Shown in pieces: positions 2,872 through 36,110 of a stretch of 64,000 nucleotides of DNA. The translations under genes and the position numbers were made by a program. Below the pieces are notes generated by a model. It had not been told where the DNA came from, did no database searches, and saw only the letters and a list, made by a program, of their open reading frames with translations. The stretch is from a virus, in the IMG/VR virus record IMGVR_UViG_3300046782_000589; one strand, written 5' to 3'. Numbering within the stretch: the stretch's first letter is position 1; the number at the start of each line of letters is the position of its first letter.

Positions 2872-4655
2872 TGGCCTATTACGACACCACTTGGTACTGC
2901 AATTTCGGCAACGGCACGACGACTGGCTATTATGCGGTGACTGTTCGTCCGCAGAATGCGGCGGTTGCTGCCGGGCAGTTGTGCCGACAATTCACTGCGC
3001 CGGCAGTCAACAGTGAGCGCGTGTTCGTCTGCATTATCGCGGGCACTACGGCAAACGTCACTGATGCGACGTGGGTGCTGACGCGCGGCGCCAAGACAGT
3101 CGACGGCACGGCGACGTGGATGGAAGTTAGCGGCATTGCTGCTGTCAATGGTGACAAGACCAACACCGTCAACTGGACGCAGGCGAAAGCGATCGGTACG
3201 CCTACGCTCGGTACGATCATTCAACGTAGCAATGGTGCGAGCTATTGGATTTGCACTACGGCGGGTGCTTTGGGTGCGAGTGAACCCGCATGGGCGAACG
3301 ATACGGCCGGTACTACGCAGGCTGATAGCACGACAACATGGACGTGTCTTGGCGTGGTTGGTAACTTCACTGGCGGGCAGGCGCCACACGCGCGGTTGCA
3401 GAATGTCTGCACAACTAACTGGTTTGCGGCAGGTAACAGCTGCTACGTCGGCGATAATCATGCCGAGTCGCAGACGACGGCTATCACTATCGCCCCTGCT
3501 GGATCGATTTCGACCATTGACAAGATAATCTGCCACAACCACTCGGGCAGCTATCCTCCGGGGGCTTCCGATCTGAGAACGACCGCGACGATTTCAACCA
3601 CGGCGGCAGCTAGCATCACGATTAACGCCGGCGGCGCTATGGGGTATTATTTCTACGGATTGCAATTTTTACTCGGAGTTGGCACATCCGGTTTTACGCA
3701 ATTTCTCTCAACGAGCAATCTGGCGTTTTTGTTTTATGATGCGTGTCTTTTTAAGTTGGCTTCAACTGGCTCGTCGAACACCATAAATATCAATGCGTTT
3801 GCGGCTGCGGGATTTCAAATATGGAACAACTGTACGGTATATTTTGGTCATGCGCTAAACTATATCAGTATTGGTGACGTATTCTGGACATGGCAAAATA
3901 CCGGACCCATTCTGGCGAGCGGATCGGTGGTTCCTACCAATGGTTTATTGAACCCTCCAAGCAACGGCTGTATCAGCAATGTGACGCTTGAAGCTCTGGA
4001 TCTCAGCCAGATCACGACCAGTCTTACTACCGCGTCGACCGAAACCAAAATTCTTTTGGTTAAGGACTGCAAGCTGAACGCTGGGATGACGGTAGCGGTG
4101 CCAAACGCTCCCGGTCAAACCGTCCAGTTTGTGCGTTCCGATTCAGCCGCGACCGCCTACAAGTCCACCCGCTACGCCTACGAGGGCGCCGAGACGACCG
4201 AGACATCCATCGTGCGTACTGGGGGTTCGGTCGATCCAACCGGACAGGCGCAGTCGCGCAAGATCGTCACTACGGCAAATTCGCAGTGGCTGCGGCCGTT
4301 CAAGGCCGAACCGTATGCGATCTGGAATTCGACTGTTGGGTCGAGTGTTACCGTGACGGTATGCGGGGTGACTGGTGCTGGTGGATTGCCGAACAACGAT
4401 GACGTCTGGCTGGAGTGCGAGTACCTCGGATCGTCGGCAAGTCCGCTGGGCACGATCGTCACCACGACCAAGTCGAATGTGTTGGCGGCGAATGCAGCGG
4501 TGGCATCGGATAGTTCGTCGTGGGGCGGTGGTGTTACGGCTTTCAAGCTTGCCACCACGATCACGCCCCAGCTGCCCGGCTACATCCACGCGCGTGTCCG
4601 TGCCGCCAAGGCGTCCGCGACCTATTACATCGATCCAAAGGTCACACTGACATGA
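2871..4655 (+). CDS. Putative tail fibre/receptor-binding protein
   Basis: 594 aa Thr/Gly/Ala-rich ORF, translationally coupled within the tail gene cluster; lower-GC central segment. Confidence 0.65.
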
Positions 4656-5374
4656 CCCAGAACGTCCCCGCTCCTATTATGGCGCAGCCGGTCGTGGTGA
4701 TCGGCGGCCATACCGGACCCTCGGGTGGTCCGACCGGACCCTCCGGCCCGTTCGGACCGACCGGTCCTCTCGGCCTGACTGGCCCGCCTGGTCCGACCGG
4801 GCTCGGGCCGACCGGGCACACCGGCGCTACCGGGCTTGGAGCCTTCACCGGTCCGACCGGGATGACCGGACCGCCGGGGATCGGCTCGCCGTCGACGGTG
4901 GCAGGCCCCACCGGCGATACTGGTCCGACTGGCGTAACCGGTCCTGTCGGGACCGATGTATCACGGACCCGTTCGGCAATTTCAATAGGGCCGTTCGGTC
5001 CCTACGGGACTTCGGCAACGGCAGTCGGTCTTGGCTTTACTTATACGCCCCAGTCTACCGGCTATATTTTTGTCACGATCGCCGGTCTGTCGCGCAACTC
5101 GACTGGCGGTGGTGGGGCCGGTACGACGGTTTCCGGTCGCTATGGCACTGGCACACCCCCGGTTGCAGGTGCAACAGCCGGACTGGGCACGCTGTTTGGC
5201 GCTTCCCAGCGCACTTATGGCGTGGACAGTGCGGACTACACCGGGTTCACGGTAACGGCCATCATCAGTGGCCTGTCCATTGGAACGCCGTGCTGGTTCG
5301 ATCTTGCTGTTTTGTCGACGGCAGGTTCGACTGCCTATGTGCAAGATCTGCAGTACACCATGGTCGAGTTCTGA
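4652..5374 (+). CDS. Collagen-like tail protein with globular C-terminal domain
   Basis: ATGA overlap at 4652; [19 protein letters not shown] followed by G-P-T repeats. Confidence 0.8.
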
Positions 5375-32042: not shown

Positions 32043-32480
32043 TTACACCTGCGCTGCCACCGGGTCAAGCGGCTTGCTGTCGGAAGGCAGGATGATATTG
32101 CCCGACTCGCGCACCTCGATGTCGCACGCCATCGCCACGGCGCGCTCCGCGGTGGCGCCGGGAGAGCGCTCCCAGCCGGGCAGCAGCAGCACGATCTGGG
32201 CGTTGTCGATGATCCAGAGGATCTCGTCCTTCAGCGCTTCCCTGCGCGCCCACTTGCGGCTCTCCTTGTCCAGGCCAAGCAAGGTTTCAAGGTCACCGTA
32301 CATGTCGCGAAGGTGTTCGGCCGGGCTGAACACCTCGGCCCCCTCGGCACGCAACTTTTTGGCCACGTAGTCGAACAGCGGCATATTCCAATTGCCGCCG
32401 GCTGACTCCATCGGCCCGGCGATGTAGATGCGAAGGGGTCCACCCGGCGCGTGTTCCATTTTCATACTCGTCATTTGCAT
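32043..32480 (-). CDS. DUF4406-like protein (nucleoside deoxyribosyltransferase-like fold)
   Basis: RIYIAGPM...FSPAE...LLPGWERSPGATAERAVA. Confidence 0.8.
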   Translation of the reverse strand: MQMTSMKMEHAPGGPLRIYIAGPMESAGGNWNMPLFDYVAKKLRAEGAEVFSPAEHLRDMYGDLETLLGLDKESRKWARREALKDEILWIIDNAQIVLLLPGWERSPGATAERAVAMACDIEVRESGNIILPSDSKPLDPVAAQV

Positions 32481-34393
32481 ACTCCATAATTTGCCCCGGA
32501 GCCTATCTCCACGGCCAGCGGCAGACCCGGCAGCCAGTCCGGCACCCGGGTCATTTCCTCAGAAATTATTGCCTTGGATTCTATCACATTGTCGTTCGGC
32601 ACCAAGAATACGAGCTCGTCGTGCGCCTGCAAGACAAACCTCAAGCCGCGATCGGCGAGCCGGACGGCAGCCTGCATCACCACGATGCGGGCGAGCGCCT
32701 GCGTGATGTTTTCGAGCAGCTTGGCGCCGTACAGACGCACATCGTTGCGCTCGTAGCGCAGGGTCATTTTGTTGGGGAGTCCTATTTGGCCACTCTTGAA
32801 GGTAACCGGATCCCATTTAGCGAATTGAGTGTCGTTGGTGCTGTTGATGACATCGGCCAGATAGCGGTCCAGCCGGCGCCAGGCCTGCGGGATGGCCGGG
32901 TACAGCTTCCGATAGACGCCGACCGTGTACTCGGCCACGCGCTCGTCGAAGATCCCCTCCAGCGATATGCCAGCCTGCCGTGCCTGCGTGGTCACCATCT
33001 GGAAGTAGCGGTCGTGGCCGCAGCCGTAGCCCAGCCCCAGGATGGCGGTCTTGCCGAGGAACCGCTCGTGCGGGTTGTCCTTCTTGGTGACACGACGGTC
33101 GAACACGCGCGAGGCGAACTGGGCATAGACGTCCTCGCCGTCGCGGAACGACTCGATCAGGTCGGCCTGTCCGCACACCACCGCCACGATGCGCGCCTCG
33201 ATCTGGGCGAGGTCGGCCGTGATCATGGTCTGTCCGGACGGCGCCAGCAGCGCCTCGCGCAGCTTCGACTTCGCCTTGTCGCGCGGCAGGTTCTGCATGT
33301 TCAAACCCCACTCGCCCGACAGCCGGCCGGTATGGGCGCCGCCGTAGCGCAGTGCGACCGGCAGCAGCGCGCCGTTCCCGCGCAGTTCTCGCGCAGTTCC
33401 CGCGCAGTTCTGCGCAGTTCCCGCGCAGTTCTGCGCTGTTCCCGCGCCGTTCCACGGCAGGCTGGCGATCTTGATGAACTTCTGCGCGCGCGTCTCCTCG
33501 ATCGTGCTCTTGTGCGACAGCCGCGCCATCGCCAGCGTCTGCACCTGGTAGTTGGTGTCGTCGTCCGGGGAGCGGTCGTATTCGAGCAGCTTGGACATGA
33601 ACGGATCGGACTTGGAGAACTGCGGGATCCACTTGCCCGTGGGTGAGGTCTTGTGCTCGATCTCGACCCCGAGCCGCTCCAGCGTCTGCTTGAACTGGGC
33701 GGTACTCATCAGCGCGGCGCGGTCGTAGCCGCACTCGCGCAGGATGCGCTCCTTGCGCTGCAGCACGTCGACCAGATTGTCCTGCAGCAGCGGCACGTCG
33801 GCGTGCAGGGTGGGCTGCACCGCGGCGCGCAGCACCAGGTCCATGACCCTGCGCTCCTCCTGCGGAAACTCCTTGGACAGCGTCAGGTAGATCTGCATGC
33901 ACAGCCGGGCGTCCTGCAGGGCGTAGGTCTGGAACTCGCCCCACAGCCCGGCGCGCTTGATGCCGGCGGCATCCAGCCCCTTAACCCTGGGCAGGATGTC
34001 ACCCTTGCTGTCGTGGCCGAACAGCTCCTTGGCCACGGCACCGAGGCTGTAGCGTTTGTAGCTGCGCAGCGCGCGCGCCATCCCGAGCGTGTCCTGCAGC
34101 CGGCCGGCGACCCAATTGTAGCGCCACGCCAGGATGGAGAGGTCAAACAGCGCGTTGTGCGAGCAGCACACCGTCTCCTCGGCCGGGTACTTCGACAGGA
34201 ATCGGGGGATGTCCTCTGGCATGACGATCCTGGGAGCGTCCCACTTGATGTCGTAGACCGCCAGGAGCAGCGTCTGGTAGCGCTTGTCGAGGATGTACTC
34301 GGGCGGGCTCATCCGTCGCAGCGAGTACTCGGAATCATAAAAGGTCTCGAAATCCACAAATAAAAATTGCTTAAAAGTACCTTGCCTTGCCAT
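32471..34393 (-). CDS. polA: DNA polymerase, family A
   Basis: Exo I VDFET; motif A TADLAQIEAR; motif B RFLGKTAILGLGYG; motif C AHDEL. Start reassigned to the ATG at 34393 because the upstream 55 codons are translated repeat array. Confidence 0.9.
   Translation of the reverse strand: MARQGTFKQFLFVDFETFYDSEYSLRRMSPPEYILDKRYQTLLLAVYDIKWDAPRIVMPEDIPRFLSKYPAEETVCCSHNALFDLSILAWRYNWVAGRLQDTLGMARALRSYKRYSLGAVAKELFGHDSKGDILPRVKGLDAAGIKRAGLWGEFQTYALQDARLCMQIYLTLSKEFPQEERRVMDLVLRAAVQPTLHADVPLLQDNLVDVLQRKERILRECGYDRAALMSTAQFKQTLERLGVEIEHKTSPTGKWIPQFSKSDPFMSKLLEYDRSPDDDTNYQVQTLAMARLSHKSTIEETRAQKFIKIASLPWNGAGTAQNCAGTAQNCAGTARELRGNGALLPVALRYGGAHTGRLSGEWGLNMQNLPRDKAKSKLREALLAPSGQTMITADLAQIEARIVAVVCGQADLIESFRDGEDVYAQFASRVFDRRVTKKDNPHERFLGKTAILGLGYGCGHDRYFQMVTTQARQAGISLEGIFDERVAEYTVGVYRKLYPAIPQAWRRLDRYLADVINSTNDTQFAKWDPVTFKSGQIGLPNKMTLRYERNDVRLYGAKLLENITQALARIVVMQAAVRLADRGLRFVLQAHDELVFLVPNDNVIESKAIISEEMTRVPDWLPGLPLAVEIGSGANYGVCK
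33371..33454. repeat. 10/11-bp alternating tandem repeat inside the polymerase gene
   Basis: gcgcagttct / gcgcagttccc units, about 7 copies; encodes AGTAQNC AGTAQNC AGTAREL. Confidence 0.85.
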
Positions 34394-34659
34394 GCCATGC
34401 CTCGCCTTGCCATGCCTCGCCTTGCCGTGCCTCGCCTTGCCTCGCCTAGCCGCGCCGTGCCTGACCGTGTCTCGCCACGCCCCGCAGCGCCCCGCAACGC
34501 CTTGCCCCGCCACACCCCGCCGCGCCTTGCCGCGCCCAGCCGCGCCCAGCCGCGCCAAACCTAGCCACGCCCGGCCTTACCGTACCGCGCCTTGCCGAAC
34601 CTCGCCTTGCCGCGCCCAGCCGCGCCGAGCCTTGCCTCGCCTCGCCTCGCCCGGCCGTA
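34380..34659 (-). ncRNA. GGY-NN pentamer array C (56 units), putative guide RNA
   Basis: Unbroken 5-nt phase; constant GGC/GGT (rarely GAC, TGC) plus a variable dinucleotide. The repeat is seen directly; RNA status is inferred. Confidence 0.75.
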
Positions 34660-34675
34660 AAATTTACAAATAAAC

Positions 34676-34860
34676 CCTTGCCTCGCCTAGCCGCGCCTGG
34701 CCGCGCCGGGACTCGCCAAGCCCCGCCTGGCCAAGCCGTGCCGCACCATGCCCAGCCGTGTCCAGCCGCGCCTTGCCTAGCTATGCCGTGCCGCGTCTTG
34801 CCCTGCCCCGCCTAGTCCAGCCCGGCCCCGCCAAGCCACGCCACGCCTTGCCGTGCCAAG
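34676..34860 (-). ncRNA. GGY-NN pentamer array B (37 units), putative guide RNA
   Basis: Same phased structure, bounded by AT-rich linkers. Confidence 0.75.
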
Positions 34861-34880
34861 TCTAAATTTACAAATTAAAC

Positions 34881-35085
34881 CCTTGCCTTGCCTTGTCTAG
34901 CCGCGCCGGGCCGAGCCTTGCCGGGACCTGCCCAGCCACGCCGTGCCTCGCCGCGCCCTGCCGAGCCTCGCCTCGCCCCGCCCAGCCACGCCGAACCCCG
35001 CCACGCCGAGCCCCGCCACGCCGAGCCCCGCCTTGCCTTGCCGCGCCGGGCCGAGCCGCGCCGTGCCCGGCCCTGCCGAGCCTCG
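34881..35085 (-). ncRNA. GGY-NN pentamer array A (41 units), putative guide RNA
   Basis: Begins 6 nt after the stop of the RAMP-like gene. Confidence 0.75.
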
Positions 35086-35091
35086 GCAAAC

Positions 35092-35709
35092 TTAGTCCCA
35101 ACGCTCGATGCGAAACTTTCCAAACACACCGCGGAACGTCCCAAGCCCGATCGCCCGACCGCCTTCTTCGACAAGGTTTAAGACATCCTGCTCCTTGATC
35201 TCCCTGTTAGGAAAAATATCCATTGTGAACTGGATCGACCAGTCGAGCGGCACCACCGGCCGCACCTTGGGATTGGGGATGCCCTTGTCGAGCCGCGCGA
35301 CCGAATAGTGGACATAGCAGCCAGACAGCTCGTCGCGATCGTGGTCGAACTTGCCGAACACGATCGGCTGGCCCTTGCGCATCAGCGGCACCCACGTCTC
35401 GCGAATGCTGACGAACGACAGCATCGCGTTGGCGAGGTCCTTGAACTTGCGCTTGTCACGCAAGCGTTTCGGTGCGGAATTTGTGTTGTGGGCCGACAAG
35501 AAGCTCATAATGTTGAGCGTCGGCAGACCAATAACTCTGGAATCGCCCGGAGCGAAGTACAATTTCTGCTGCGGTTCCAGCTTGGTCTGGTTGTCCCCCG
35601 GATATCTGTCGAACATGATCTCGGTCAGTCCGGTAAGAACCACGTTTCGCGTCACGATGTCCGTCGGCCGGTTGATCTTTACGGCCGCGTCTTTGGTTTT
35701 GTCGAGCAT
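35092..35709 (-). CDS. Stand-alone RAMP/Cas7-like protein (Vipr-like)
   Basis: 205 aa; N-terminal strand VVLTGLTEIMFDRY, LPTLNIMSFL helix and C-terminal Gly-rich loop GGRAIGLGTFRGVFGKF typical of RAMPs. Alternative starts at 35721 and 35733. Confidence 0.75.
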   Translation of the reverse strand: MLDKTKDAAVKINRPTDIVTRNVVLTGLTEIMFDRYPGDNQTKLEPQQKLYFAPGDSRVIGLPTLNIMSFLSAHNTNSAPKRLRDKRKFKDLANAMLSFVSIRETWVPLMRKGQPIVFGKFDHDRDELSGCYVHYSVARLDKGIPNPKVRPVVPLDWSIQFTMDIFPNREIKEQDVLNLVEEGGRAIGLGTFRGVFGKFRIERWD

Positions 35710-35747
35710 GATCAGATCCATCCTTGTTTTCACTTGCCATGAAGTTT

Positions 35748-35867
35748 CCTCGCCTTGCCTCGCCCAGCCACGCCACGCCATGACTTGCCTTGCCGCGCCG
35801 TGCCGGGCCGAGCCGCGCCAAGCCGCGCCAAGCCGGGACTAGCCCCGCCATGCCTTGCCGAGCCAAA
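35748..35867 (-). ncRNA. GGY-NN pentamer array D (24 units), upstream of the RAMP-like gene
   Basis: Same phased structure; begins 3 nt after the stop of the upstream gene. Confidence 0.75.
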
Positions 35868-35870
35868 AAC

Positions 35871-36110
35871 TCACCTTGGTACCCAGCGATTGAACCCCTC
35901 GCGCTTGAGCAAACCCTCTCGCGCCATCTGGCTCAGATGGTACCAGGACTGTTCCCATCCGCCGATCTCGTTTGCCTGCTGGTTGGTGATGAAGCCTTTA
36001 CGCCTGGCGACCTTGAGCACGCGCTCGCGCGCCTCGTCGACCGCCTTGCGCTTGCGCCCGTTGTTCTGCTTGGCCTTCTTCGTCTTCTTCGTCTTCTTCG
36101 TCTTTGCCAT
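35871..36110 (-). CDS. Small basic putative winged-helix DNA-binding protein
   Basis: AAAGGAG RBS; Lys-rich N-terminus; GFITNQQA..I...YHLSQMAREGLL pattern. Confidence 0.6.
   Translation of the reverse strand: MAKTKKTKKTKKAKQNNGRKRKAVDEARERVLKVARRKGFITNQQANEIGGWEQSWYHLSQMAREGLLKREGFNRWVPR

Follow-up and report, generated by a model that had tools for sequence, protein, structure and literature searches.

What do the variable dinucleotides specify in four long arrays of a five-base repeat that stand around a small gene of an uncultivated soil phage, and in which geometry would they be read? The arrays lie in the IMG/VR record IMGVR_UViG_3300046782_000589, from which a stretch of 64 kb (64,000 nucleotides) was analyzed; this whole stretch is here called the window, and all coordinates refer to it. 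They are built of GGC-NN units in an indel-free period of five, count 155 units in total and follow one another on the minus strand in the 5'->3' order D, A, B, C, together with a gene on the same strand, vipr, that codes for a RAMP protein. No second period-5 GGC region occurs on either strand of the window. We are confident in assigning this locus to VIPR (Viral Interference Programmable Repeat), a kind of phage-borne, CRISPR-like silencing system first described in 2026 (bioRxiv 10.64898/2026.04.26.720920). Comparison with its relatives further indicates that in the Vipr clade of the window, and hence in the window locus, the dinucleotides are probably read against uninterrupted target sequence. 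Taken whole, a VIPR locus composed of vipr and four arrays of guide RNA (vrRNA), belonging to a clade that reads ungapped targets, is on balance the best explanation that we can offer. VIPR as a system is already known; what would be new, if it holds, is the contiguous code of this clade.

As set out in the main texts of the VIPR preprints, the vrRNA guides alternate GGY with NN, and the NN pairs specify a double-stranded DNA target of which every third base is skipped, a rule denoted NNx below (bioRxiv 10.64898/2026.04.26.720920). The protein, Vipr, is described there as a minimal RAMP that has an RRM core, a loop rich in glycine (the G-loop) and a thumb, one protomer being bound per unit (bioRxiv 10.64898/2026.04.26.720927), and the targets are given as competing phages and satellites, rival vipr genes included (bioRxiv 10.64898/2026.10.15.759431). 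According to the same texts, the published arrays hold 9-16 units and are transcribed into vrRNAs of about 100 nt that co-purify with Vipr; most of the seven VIPR types carry an accessory gene, vap, and stand-alone vipr genes are also reported.

Four lines of evidence argue for the membership of the window locus in this group. First, its Vipr has a G-loop, GLGTFRGVFGKF, near the C-terminus and a conserved R150-P151 at the position of the thumb, and the AlphaFold2 model made with 74 homologues (mean predicted local distance difference test, pLDDT, of 95) recovered CRISPR effector chains as the top 50 of 50 Foldseek matches in the PDB, nearly all of them type III Csm/Cmr proteins (best E 4e-6). 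Second, the profile of the family, made from the 74 homologues, matches PDB entry 36pp_D, 'SUSP1 Vipr protein', with an E of 1.9e-10, in an alignment that pairs the SUSP1 G-loop GVGDWRPRFGRF with that of the window and also aligns the R-P of the thumb. Third, the layout is that of the type II systems of Escherichia phage SUSP1 and of a Pseudomonas fulva prophage, the link to SUSP1 being the said profile match: one small RAMP protein, bearing a G-loop and a thumb, and, as in SUSP1, pentameric GGY-NN arrays on the vipr strand, one upstream and three downstream. Fourth, a detector of GGY-NN arrays found 240 of them in 115 Vipr-carrying loci (1.59 Mb), whereas 144 unrelated viral loci (1.21 Mb), fetched for other purposes, contained none. 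The homologues number 2032, none of them with a Pfam domain, the window protein included, and in IMG/VR alone 166 loci carry one of 50% identity or more to it; the homologues span Proteobacteria, Planctomycetes, Actinobacteria and cyanobacterial phages, on IMG/VR contigs as well as in isolated phages, and adjacent arrays accompany the homologue in Burkholderia phage vB_E436, mycobacteriophage Donkeykong and cyanophage Cy-LDV1. The idea of the first-pass annotation, a reading of the letters without database searches, that the NN pairs are the specificity letters of a guide is thereby borne out as a prediction, given that the locus agrees with VIPR in sequence, fold and architecture and that this role has been shown experimentally in published systems. 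Its hand-read strings of NN pairs for D, A, B and C are also identical to the machine read-out, save for one leading flanking dinucleotide each in D, A and B.

The best structural matches of Vipr are to the Cas7 backbone of type III CRISPR systems, i.e. Csm3/Cmr4 (Foldseek E about 4e-6, probability 1.0), with which it shares the use of one subunit per fixed step of guide RNA and a thumb that flips bases out. In contrast to Cas7, where the step is 6 nt and one base is flipped, the VIPR step is 5 nt with three bases sequestered. Sequence identity to these proteins is only 10-17% with TM-scores of 0.4-0.56, and the window locus is without CRISPR repeats, spacers and other cas genes: around it we saw no direct repeats of 25-40 nt of the CRISPR type, and there was no cas family among the neighboring genes. 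Protein-bound repeats of other kinds had also been considered for the arrays. The trp RNA-binding attenuation protein (TRAP) is an oligomer that reads triplets at a 2-nt spacing, its sites being 11 GAG/UAG triplets; this candidate was rejected after the RAMP fold and the VIPR papers had been found, since TRAP has an unrelated fold and no guide function. Protein-binding repeats of other sorts, an origin or iterons, and a Rho-loading site were dropped in view of the same fold and papers.

Within VIPR, the window locus departs from the published systems in several respects. Its arrays, at 24-55 units, are two to four times longer; they end in (GGCAA)n and a short U-rich linker, whereas the SUSP1 clade has a pseudoknot tail of about 40 nt; and the G-loop reads T-F-R in place of D-W-R in SUSP1. 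Unlike in most VIPR types, no conserved vap gene stands beside vipr in the window clade: the neighbors of the window vipr, namely a 79-amino-acid winged helix-turn-helix protein, two open reading frames (ORFs) of 150 and 212 amino acids and a DNA polymerase, do not recur beside vipr in the other 114 loci, so that the locus is without a recognizable accessory gene.

The most consequential difference concerns the reading of the guides. We fetched 94 further loci of the window's Vipr clade, which brought the guide arrays to about 245, with 4900 units, and compared these with 1.6-1.7 Mb of related phage DNA under four gap rules, from skip 0 (contiguous) through skip 1 (NNx) to skip 3. In an all-against-all comparison of whole loci, with arrays masked and shuffled unit order as the control, NNx produced 2 events of a score of at least 16, as against 4.0-4.4 in the shuffles, i.e. 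no excess, and no self event of this score appeared in any clade locus. A second comparison set the 245 guides against 119 vipr genes only, with the guide's own locus masked, a threshold of 17/18 and 12 shuffles. Here the contiguous rule brought four guides to at least 17/18, while each of the 12 shuffles gave none; NNx and skip 2 brought none (shuffle means 0.17 and 0, respectively) and skip 3 a single one (shuffle mean 0.25). Because four guides match rival vipr genes contiguously, with no counterpart in the shuffles, and NNx shows no enrichment, the contiguous reading is favored for the clade. The search over gap variants with shuffled controls that the first-pass annotation had proposed thus gave nothing for NNx, and the contiguous variant it had listed beside it proved the only enriched rule in the vipr-only comparison. 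As with SUSP1-family guides, those of the window's relatives aim at rival vipr genes, here under the contiguous rule only; the guide-target matches of SUSP1 and P. fulva follow NNx.

The four guides come from relatives whose Vipr is 73-91% identical to that of the window, and their matches in rival vipr genes reach 25/26. This longest one belongs to an array upstream of vipr in locus L172 (Vipr 89% identical), which matches rival vipr genes in antisense at a conserved site coding for SAHNTNS, contiguously; two loci give 25/26, and in eight loci 2-3 of 28 positions are mismatched. The vipr of L172 itself has 9 mismatches in 28 at this site. The guides of L188 (19/20) and L171 (17/18) match other vipr sites contiguously on the sense strand, with 7 and 5 mismatches, respectively, to their own vipr and 1 each to the best rival. 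Locus L260 (Vipr 91% identical), fetched afterwards, has an independent guide to the SAHNTNS site, with 16/16 and 17/18 over nine units; this guide finds a match in 16 loci and differs at 7 positions from the vipr of L260. Across the four guides, the own vipr differs at 5-9 positions as against 1-5 in the best rival, and this excess suggests that the phages that carry the guides avoid them by synonymous recoding of their own vipr. The supposition of the first-pass annotation that such guides would be insensitive to escape at wobble positions sits poorly with these differences, and fails if the contiguous rule holds. The matched stretches cover 9-14 units within arrays of 16-57 units, and three of the four stop just before the conserved 3' units; since each match occupies only part of a longer array, long arrays probably hold several guides each.

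Matches under other rules carried less conviction. Those of L188 to L233 under skip 2 or skip 3 (20/20) and of L005 to L177 (22/24) were dropped, being G-rich or isolated and marginally above shuffles, although no skip 2 or skip 3 match of the shuffles reached their score level. For a guide of a Paraburkholderia prophage (L012), a search under NNx that allowed as many as 3 mismatches found nothing, either in the prophage's own genome or in 213 genomes of that genus.

The strongest rival to the contiguous reading is that the locus is an ordinary VIPR system with a 1-nt skip, whose targets are absent from the sequence searched and whose contiguous matches are a coincidence or a side effect. We regard this as unlikely, yet deserving of serious weight. 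The 1-nt skip has the support of binding, reporter and cryo-electron microscopy (cryo-EM) experiments in two type II systems, SUSP1 and P. fulva, and, by the main texts of the preprints, has been used successfully for types III and V (bioRxiv 10.64898/2026.04.26.720920 and 10.64898/2026.04.26.720927). It is also the very rule that the first-pass annotation had arrived at by supposing that every third base is skipped in codon phase; that gapped reading coincides with the published one for SUSP1 and P. fulva, but in the present clade NNx is not above chance. In composition, the NN pairs resemble codon positions 1-2 more closely than 2-3 or 3-1, with an advantage of some 0.44 bit per unit; this, however, mainly reflects the lower G+C content of the NN positions, and a model of codon positions 1-2 does no better than a uniform one. 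The scope of the NNx search was seven seeds in IMG/VR and 1.7 Mb of local DNA, which leaves room for targets elsewhere. Against this, none of the 245 guides reached 17/18 in a rival vipr under NNx where four did so contiguously, and chance hardly accounts for the 25/26 match, for its replication by L260 and for the recoded vipr genes of the guide carriers.

Several further points weigh against a contiguous code or temper it. A pocket for one skipped base in the cryo-EM structure of SUSP1 Vipr argues that the skip is built into the fold (bioRxiv 10.64898/2026.04.26.720927), and the main texts of the VIPR preprints mention a 1-nt skip only, although a type with no skip could stand in their supplements. 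The contiguous rule is drawn from four guides of relatives, among whose matches only that of 25/26 would be overwhelming by itself. In the whole-locus comparison, skip 3 showed a mild excess at the 16-point level, with 7 events as against about 3 in the shuffles. For arrays A-D of the window itself, no convincing target emerged under any rule, whether from the seeds in IMG/VR, the GenBank phages or the 1.6-1.7 Mb of related loci. Finally, the transcription and processing of the arrays and their binding by Vipr are taken over from characterized systems and are predictions here.

The searches with the window's own guides were as follows. Within the window, the best self-matches under gap rules 0-3 equal those of shuffled arrays; the locus is thus phage-borne and without a self-target, like the systems of SUSP1 and P. 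fulva, and the first-pass annotation was right in having seen none by eye. The decoded guides, taken as degenerate peptides in both orientations, were also set against the window and the first loci in six-frame translation, and no match rose above the shuffles. From each of the four arrays, NNx seeds 8-9 units long (B1-9, B25-32, A26-33, D1-8, C13-20, C34-41 and B17-24) were placed in IMG/VR and extended; among the matches listed for the seven there were about 144 exact seed hits, whose flanking units were 25-30% identical, as expected by chance. Contiguous pieces of arrays A and B gave chance matches only in BLAST searches of GenBank phages, and a 17-mer match in Aeromonas phage 59.1 was dismissed, the site lying inside an ordinary coding gene. 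The expectation that the decoded strings would be directly searchable targets has accordingly yet to be borne out for this phage, none of whose four arrays has yielded one. The best lead, and a lead only, is a contiguous match of 19/20 between the 3'-proximal part of array A and the 5' end of a tRNA-Gly gene in locus L241, of another VIPR phage (p about 0.05). In the opposite direction, a guide of L173/L174 matches window positions 4874-4889 (16/16), which we take as chance, the site lying in a G+C-rich collagen-like repeat.

The very length of the arrays invites a second alternative, namely that they are not, or not only, guides and represent instead expanded, partly decayed repeat tracts, a sponge for the Vipr of rivals, or a regulatory leader through which Vipr loading would be linked to polymerase expression. 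We consider it improbable. For the clade as a whole the median array has 17 units and the 90th percentile is 35 units, a mark that the arrays of 36-55 units equal or surpass; Tandem Repeats Finder reports internal duplications of 15-50 nt in addition to period 5 and its multiples; and array C abuts the start of the polymerase gene, the start codon falling inside the last linker. Low-complexity stretches at 3' ends, such as the final 11 units of array C (GA/AC/AA/AT), would not be expected in a guide matched to a target, and the window arrays have no target found. Nevertheless, long arrays of relatives (31-57 units) do contain target-matching segments, and the GGC frame, which runs for as much as 275 nt free of any indel, points to selection for the register in which Vipr binds. 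A functionless simple-sequence repeat or an assembly artefact, as one might fear in G+C-rich, low-complexity metagenomic DNA, is scarcely credible, because identical array-region sequence recurs without differences in contigs of other soil and rhizosphere runs (e.g. 34464-35496 and 34565-35344), which speaks against an artefact of a single sample, and because the NN positions vary within a 5-nt register that is itself perfect and the arrays go with vipr homologues across phyla.

Under the contiguous reading that we prefer, and by analogy with the characterized systems, the arrays would be transcribed and each GGC-NN unit bound by one Vipr protomer, with the GGC flipped into the protein and the NN pair presented. 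The resulting filament of Vipr and vrRNA would bind the double-stranded DNA of competing phages and silence the target. Each long array would hold several guides, and successive NN pairs would read consecutive target bases (a 0-nt skip) rather than two of every three. More generally, we think it rather probable that a widespread VIPR clade, of over 2000 Vipr homologues, pairs NN with consecutive target bases while looping out the GGC, and uses long multi-guide arrays with no intervening tails. So far, VIPR has been presented as defined by a code that is gapped and tolerates wobble, and as ancestral to the backbones of CRISPR. If the contiguous code is real, target prediction would change for a large share of VIPR loci, in which NNx searches would miss the targets; the 'noncontiguous code' would become a property of some VIPR types only, with a fold that could support at least two pairing geometries; and there would be less force in the evolutionary argument by which VIPR withstands escape through synonymous changes. 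Nature would then also have furnished a pair of related proteins with different pairing geometry for structural comparison. If, on the other hand, the contiguous reading fails, the locus is one more VIPR member, notable only for its very long arrays.

Features of the vipr locus and the recurrent linker motif (window coordinates)
Feature	Position	Strand	Description
vipr	35092..35709	minus	205-aa RAMP (Cas7-like) protein, between arrays D and A
Array D	35864-35745	minus	24 GGC-NN units, the last degenerate; upstream of vipr; candidate vrRNA gene(s)
Array A	35082-34883	minus	40 units; first unit 10 nt past the vipr stop codon
Linker 1	34858..34882	minus	AT-rich; GGGTTTAATTTGTAAATTTAGACTT; between A and B
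Array B	34857-34678	minus	36 units
Linker 2	34657..34677	minus	AT-rich; GGGTTTATTTGTAAATTTTAC; between B and C
Array C	34656-34382	minus	55 units; register one base off A and B
Linker 3	34355..34381	minus	AT-rich; …TTTATTTGTG…; overlaps probable GTG start of family-A DNA polymerase gene
TTTGTAAATTT copies (at most 1 mismatch)	32034, 34660, 34864, 38489, 43234, 54769	both	two in array linkers

Array D ends in GGCGA GGCAA GGCGA GGAAA and continues into the 5' leader of vipr, while array A contains a threefold internal repeat (TC GT GG) and closes with the block TC CC GC TA AA AA AA. A few units have degenerate triplets (GTC, GAC, GGT, AGC, TGC). One such unit, G(T/A)CCC before a GGC, turns up at varying places in the arrays of several loci, among them L004/L005, and as GTCCC in arrays D, A and B of the window; it might mark where one guide gives way to the next, or where processing between guides takes place. 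The linkers that separate A, B and C are nearly identical to each other. Linker 1 has the end typical of the clade, (GGCAA)n GG and then a U-rich stretch, which relatives share as (GGCAA)2-4 GG with a U-rich stretch, and it might act as a 3' tail, as a processing site or as the promoter of array B. Hairpins predicted at the array 3' ends are no better than those of shuffles (z -1.2 to +1.3), and a scan of the locus for sigma-70 promoters and terminators gave nothing that exceeds shuffles. The linker core TTTGTAAATTT occurs, with at most one mismatch, six times in the window as against 0.15 expected; this recurrence suggests that the motif may serve the phage more generally, for instance as a promoter or processing site, and not as the tail of a vrRNA.

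Some observations on related loci bear on how such arrays are organized and annotated. In Mycobacterium phage Donkeykong (NC_051648.1; locus L001, 2975-3330), gp48, annotated as a 'hypothetical protein', is a GGY-NN array and the gp49 downstream of it is Vipr-like, a pattern probably present also in phages Brocalys, Pippy, Clifton and LastJedi. The close relatives L259 (8793-9443) and L260 (8607-9816) have up to 13 arrays per locus, with linkers of 13 nt in L259; the presence of GcrA and a response regulator among the genes of L260 suggests a host in the Alphaproteobacteria. In L241 (10593-10749), the tRNA-Gly(TCC) gene begins 10 nt past a vrRNA array and may help to process the guide at its 3' end; in L011 and L025, too, an array has a tRNA gene less than 100 nt away.

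The genes around the locus comprise a family-A DNA polymerase, a PD-(D/E)XK exonuclease and a DUF4406 protein, and PHROG matches point to a viral context. The frame of the polymerase was worked out from the ORF at 32471-34558, its DFET exonuclease motif and the Pfam family DNA_pol_A, and its start is the probable GTG at 34357. Just upstream of array D, the 79-amino-acid protein (35871-36110, minus strand) has a lysine-rich N-terminus and a winged-helix-like C-terminus with a weak match to AbiEi_4; a repeat, (CTTCTTCGT)3, occupies 36075-36104 within its region. Farther away, the gene at 4652-5374 encodes collagen-like Gly-Pro-Thr repeats, probably of a tail-fibre type protein, and an ARAGORN call of a tRNA-Pro inside it is false. 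Lastly, an 11-nt unit (CGCGCAGTTCC, plus strand), of a period that is not a multiple of three, stands in eight tandem copies at 33368-33453, inside the polymerase ORF.

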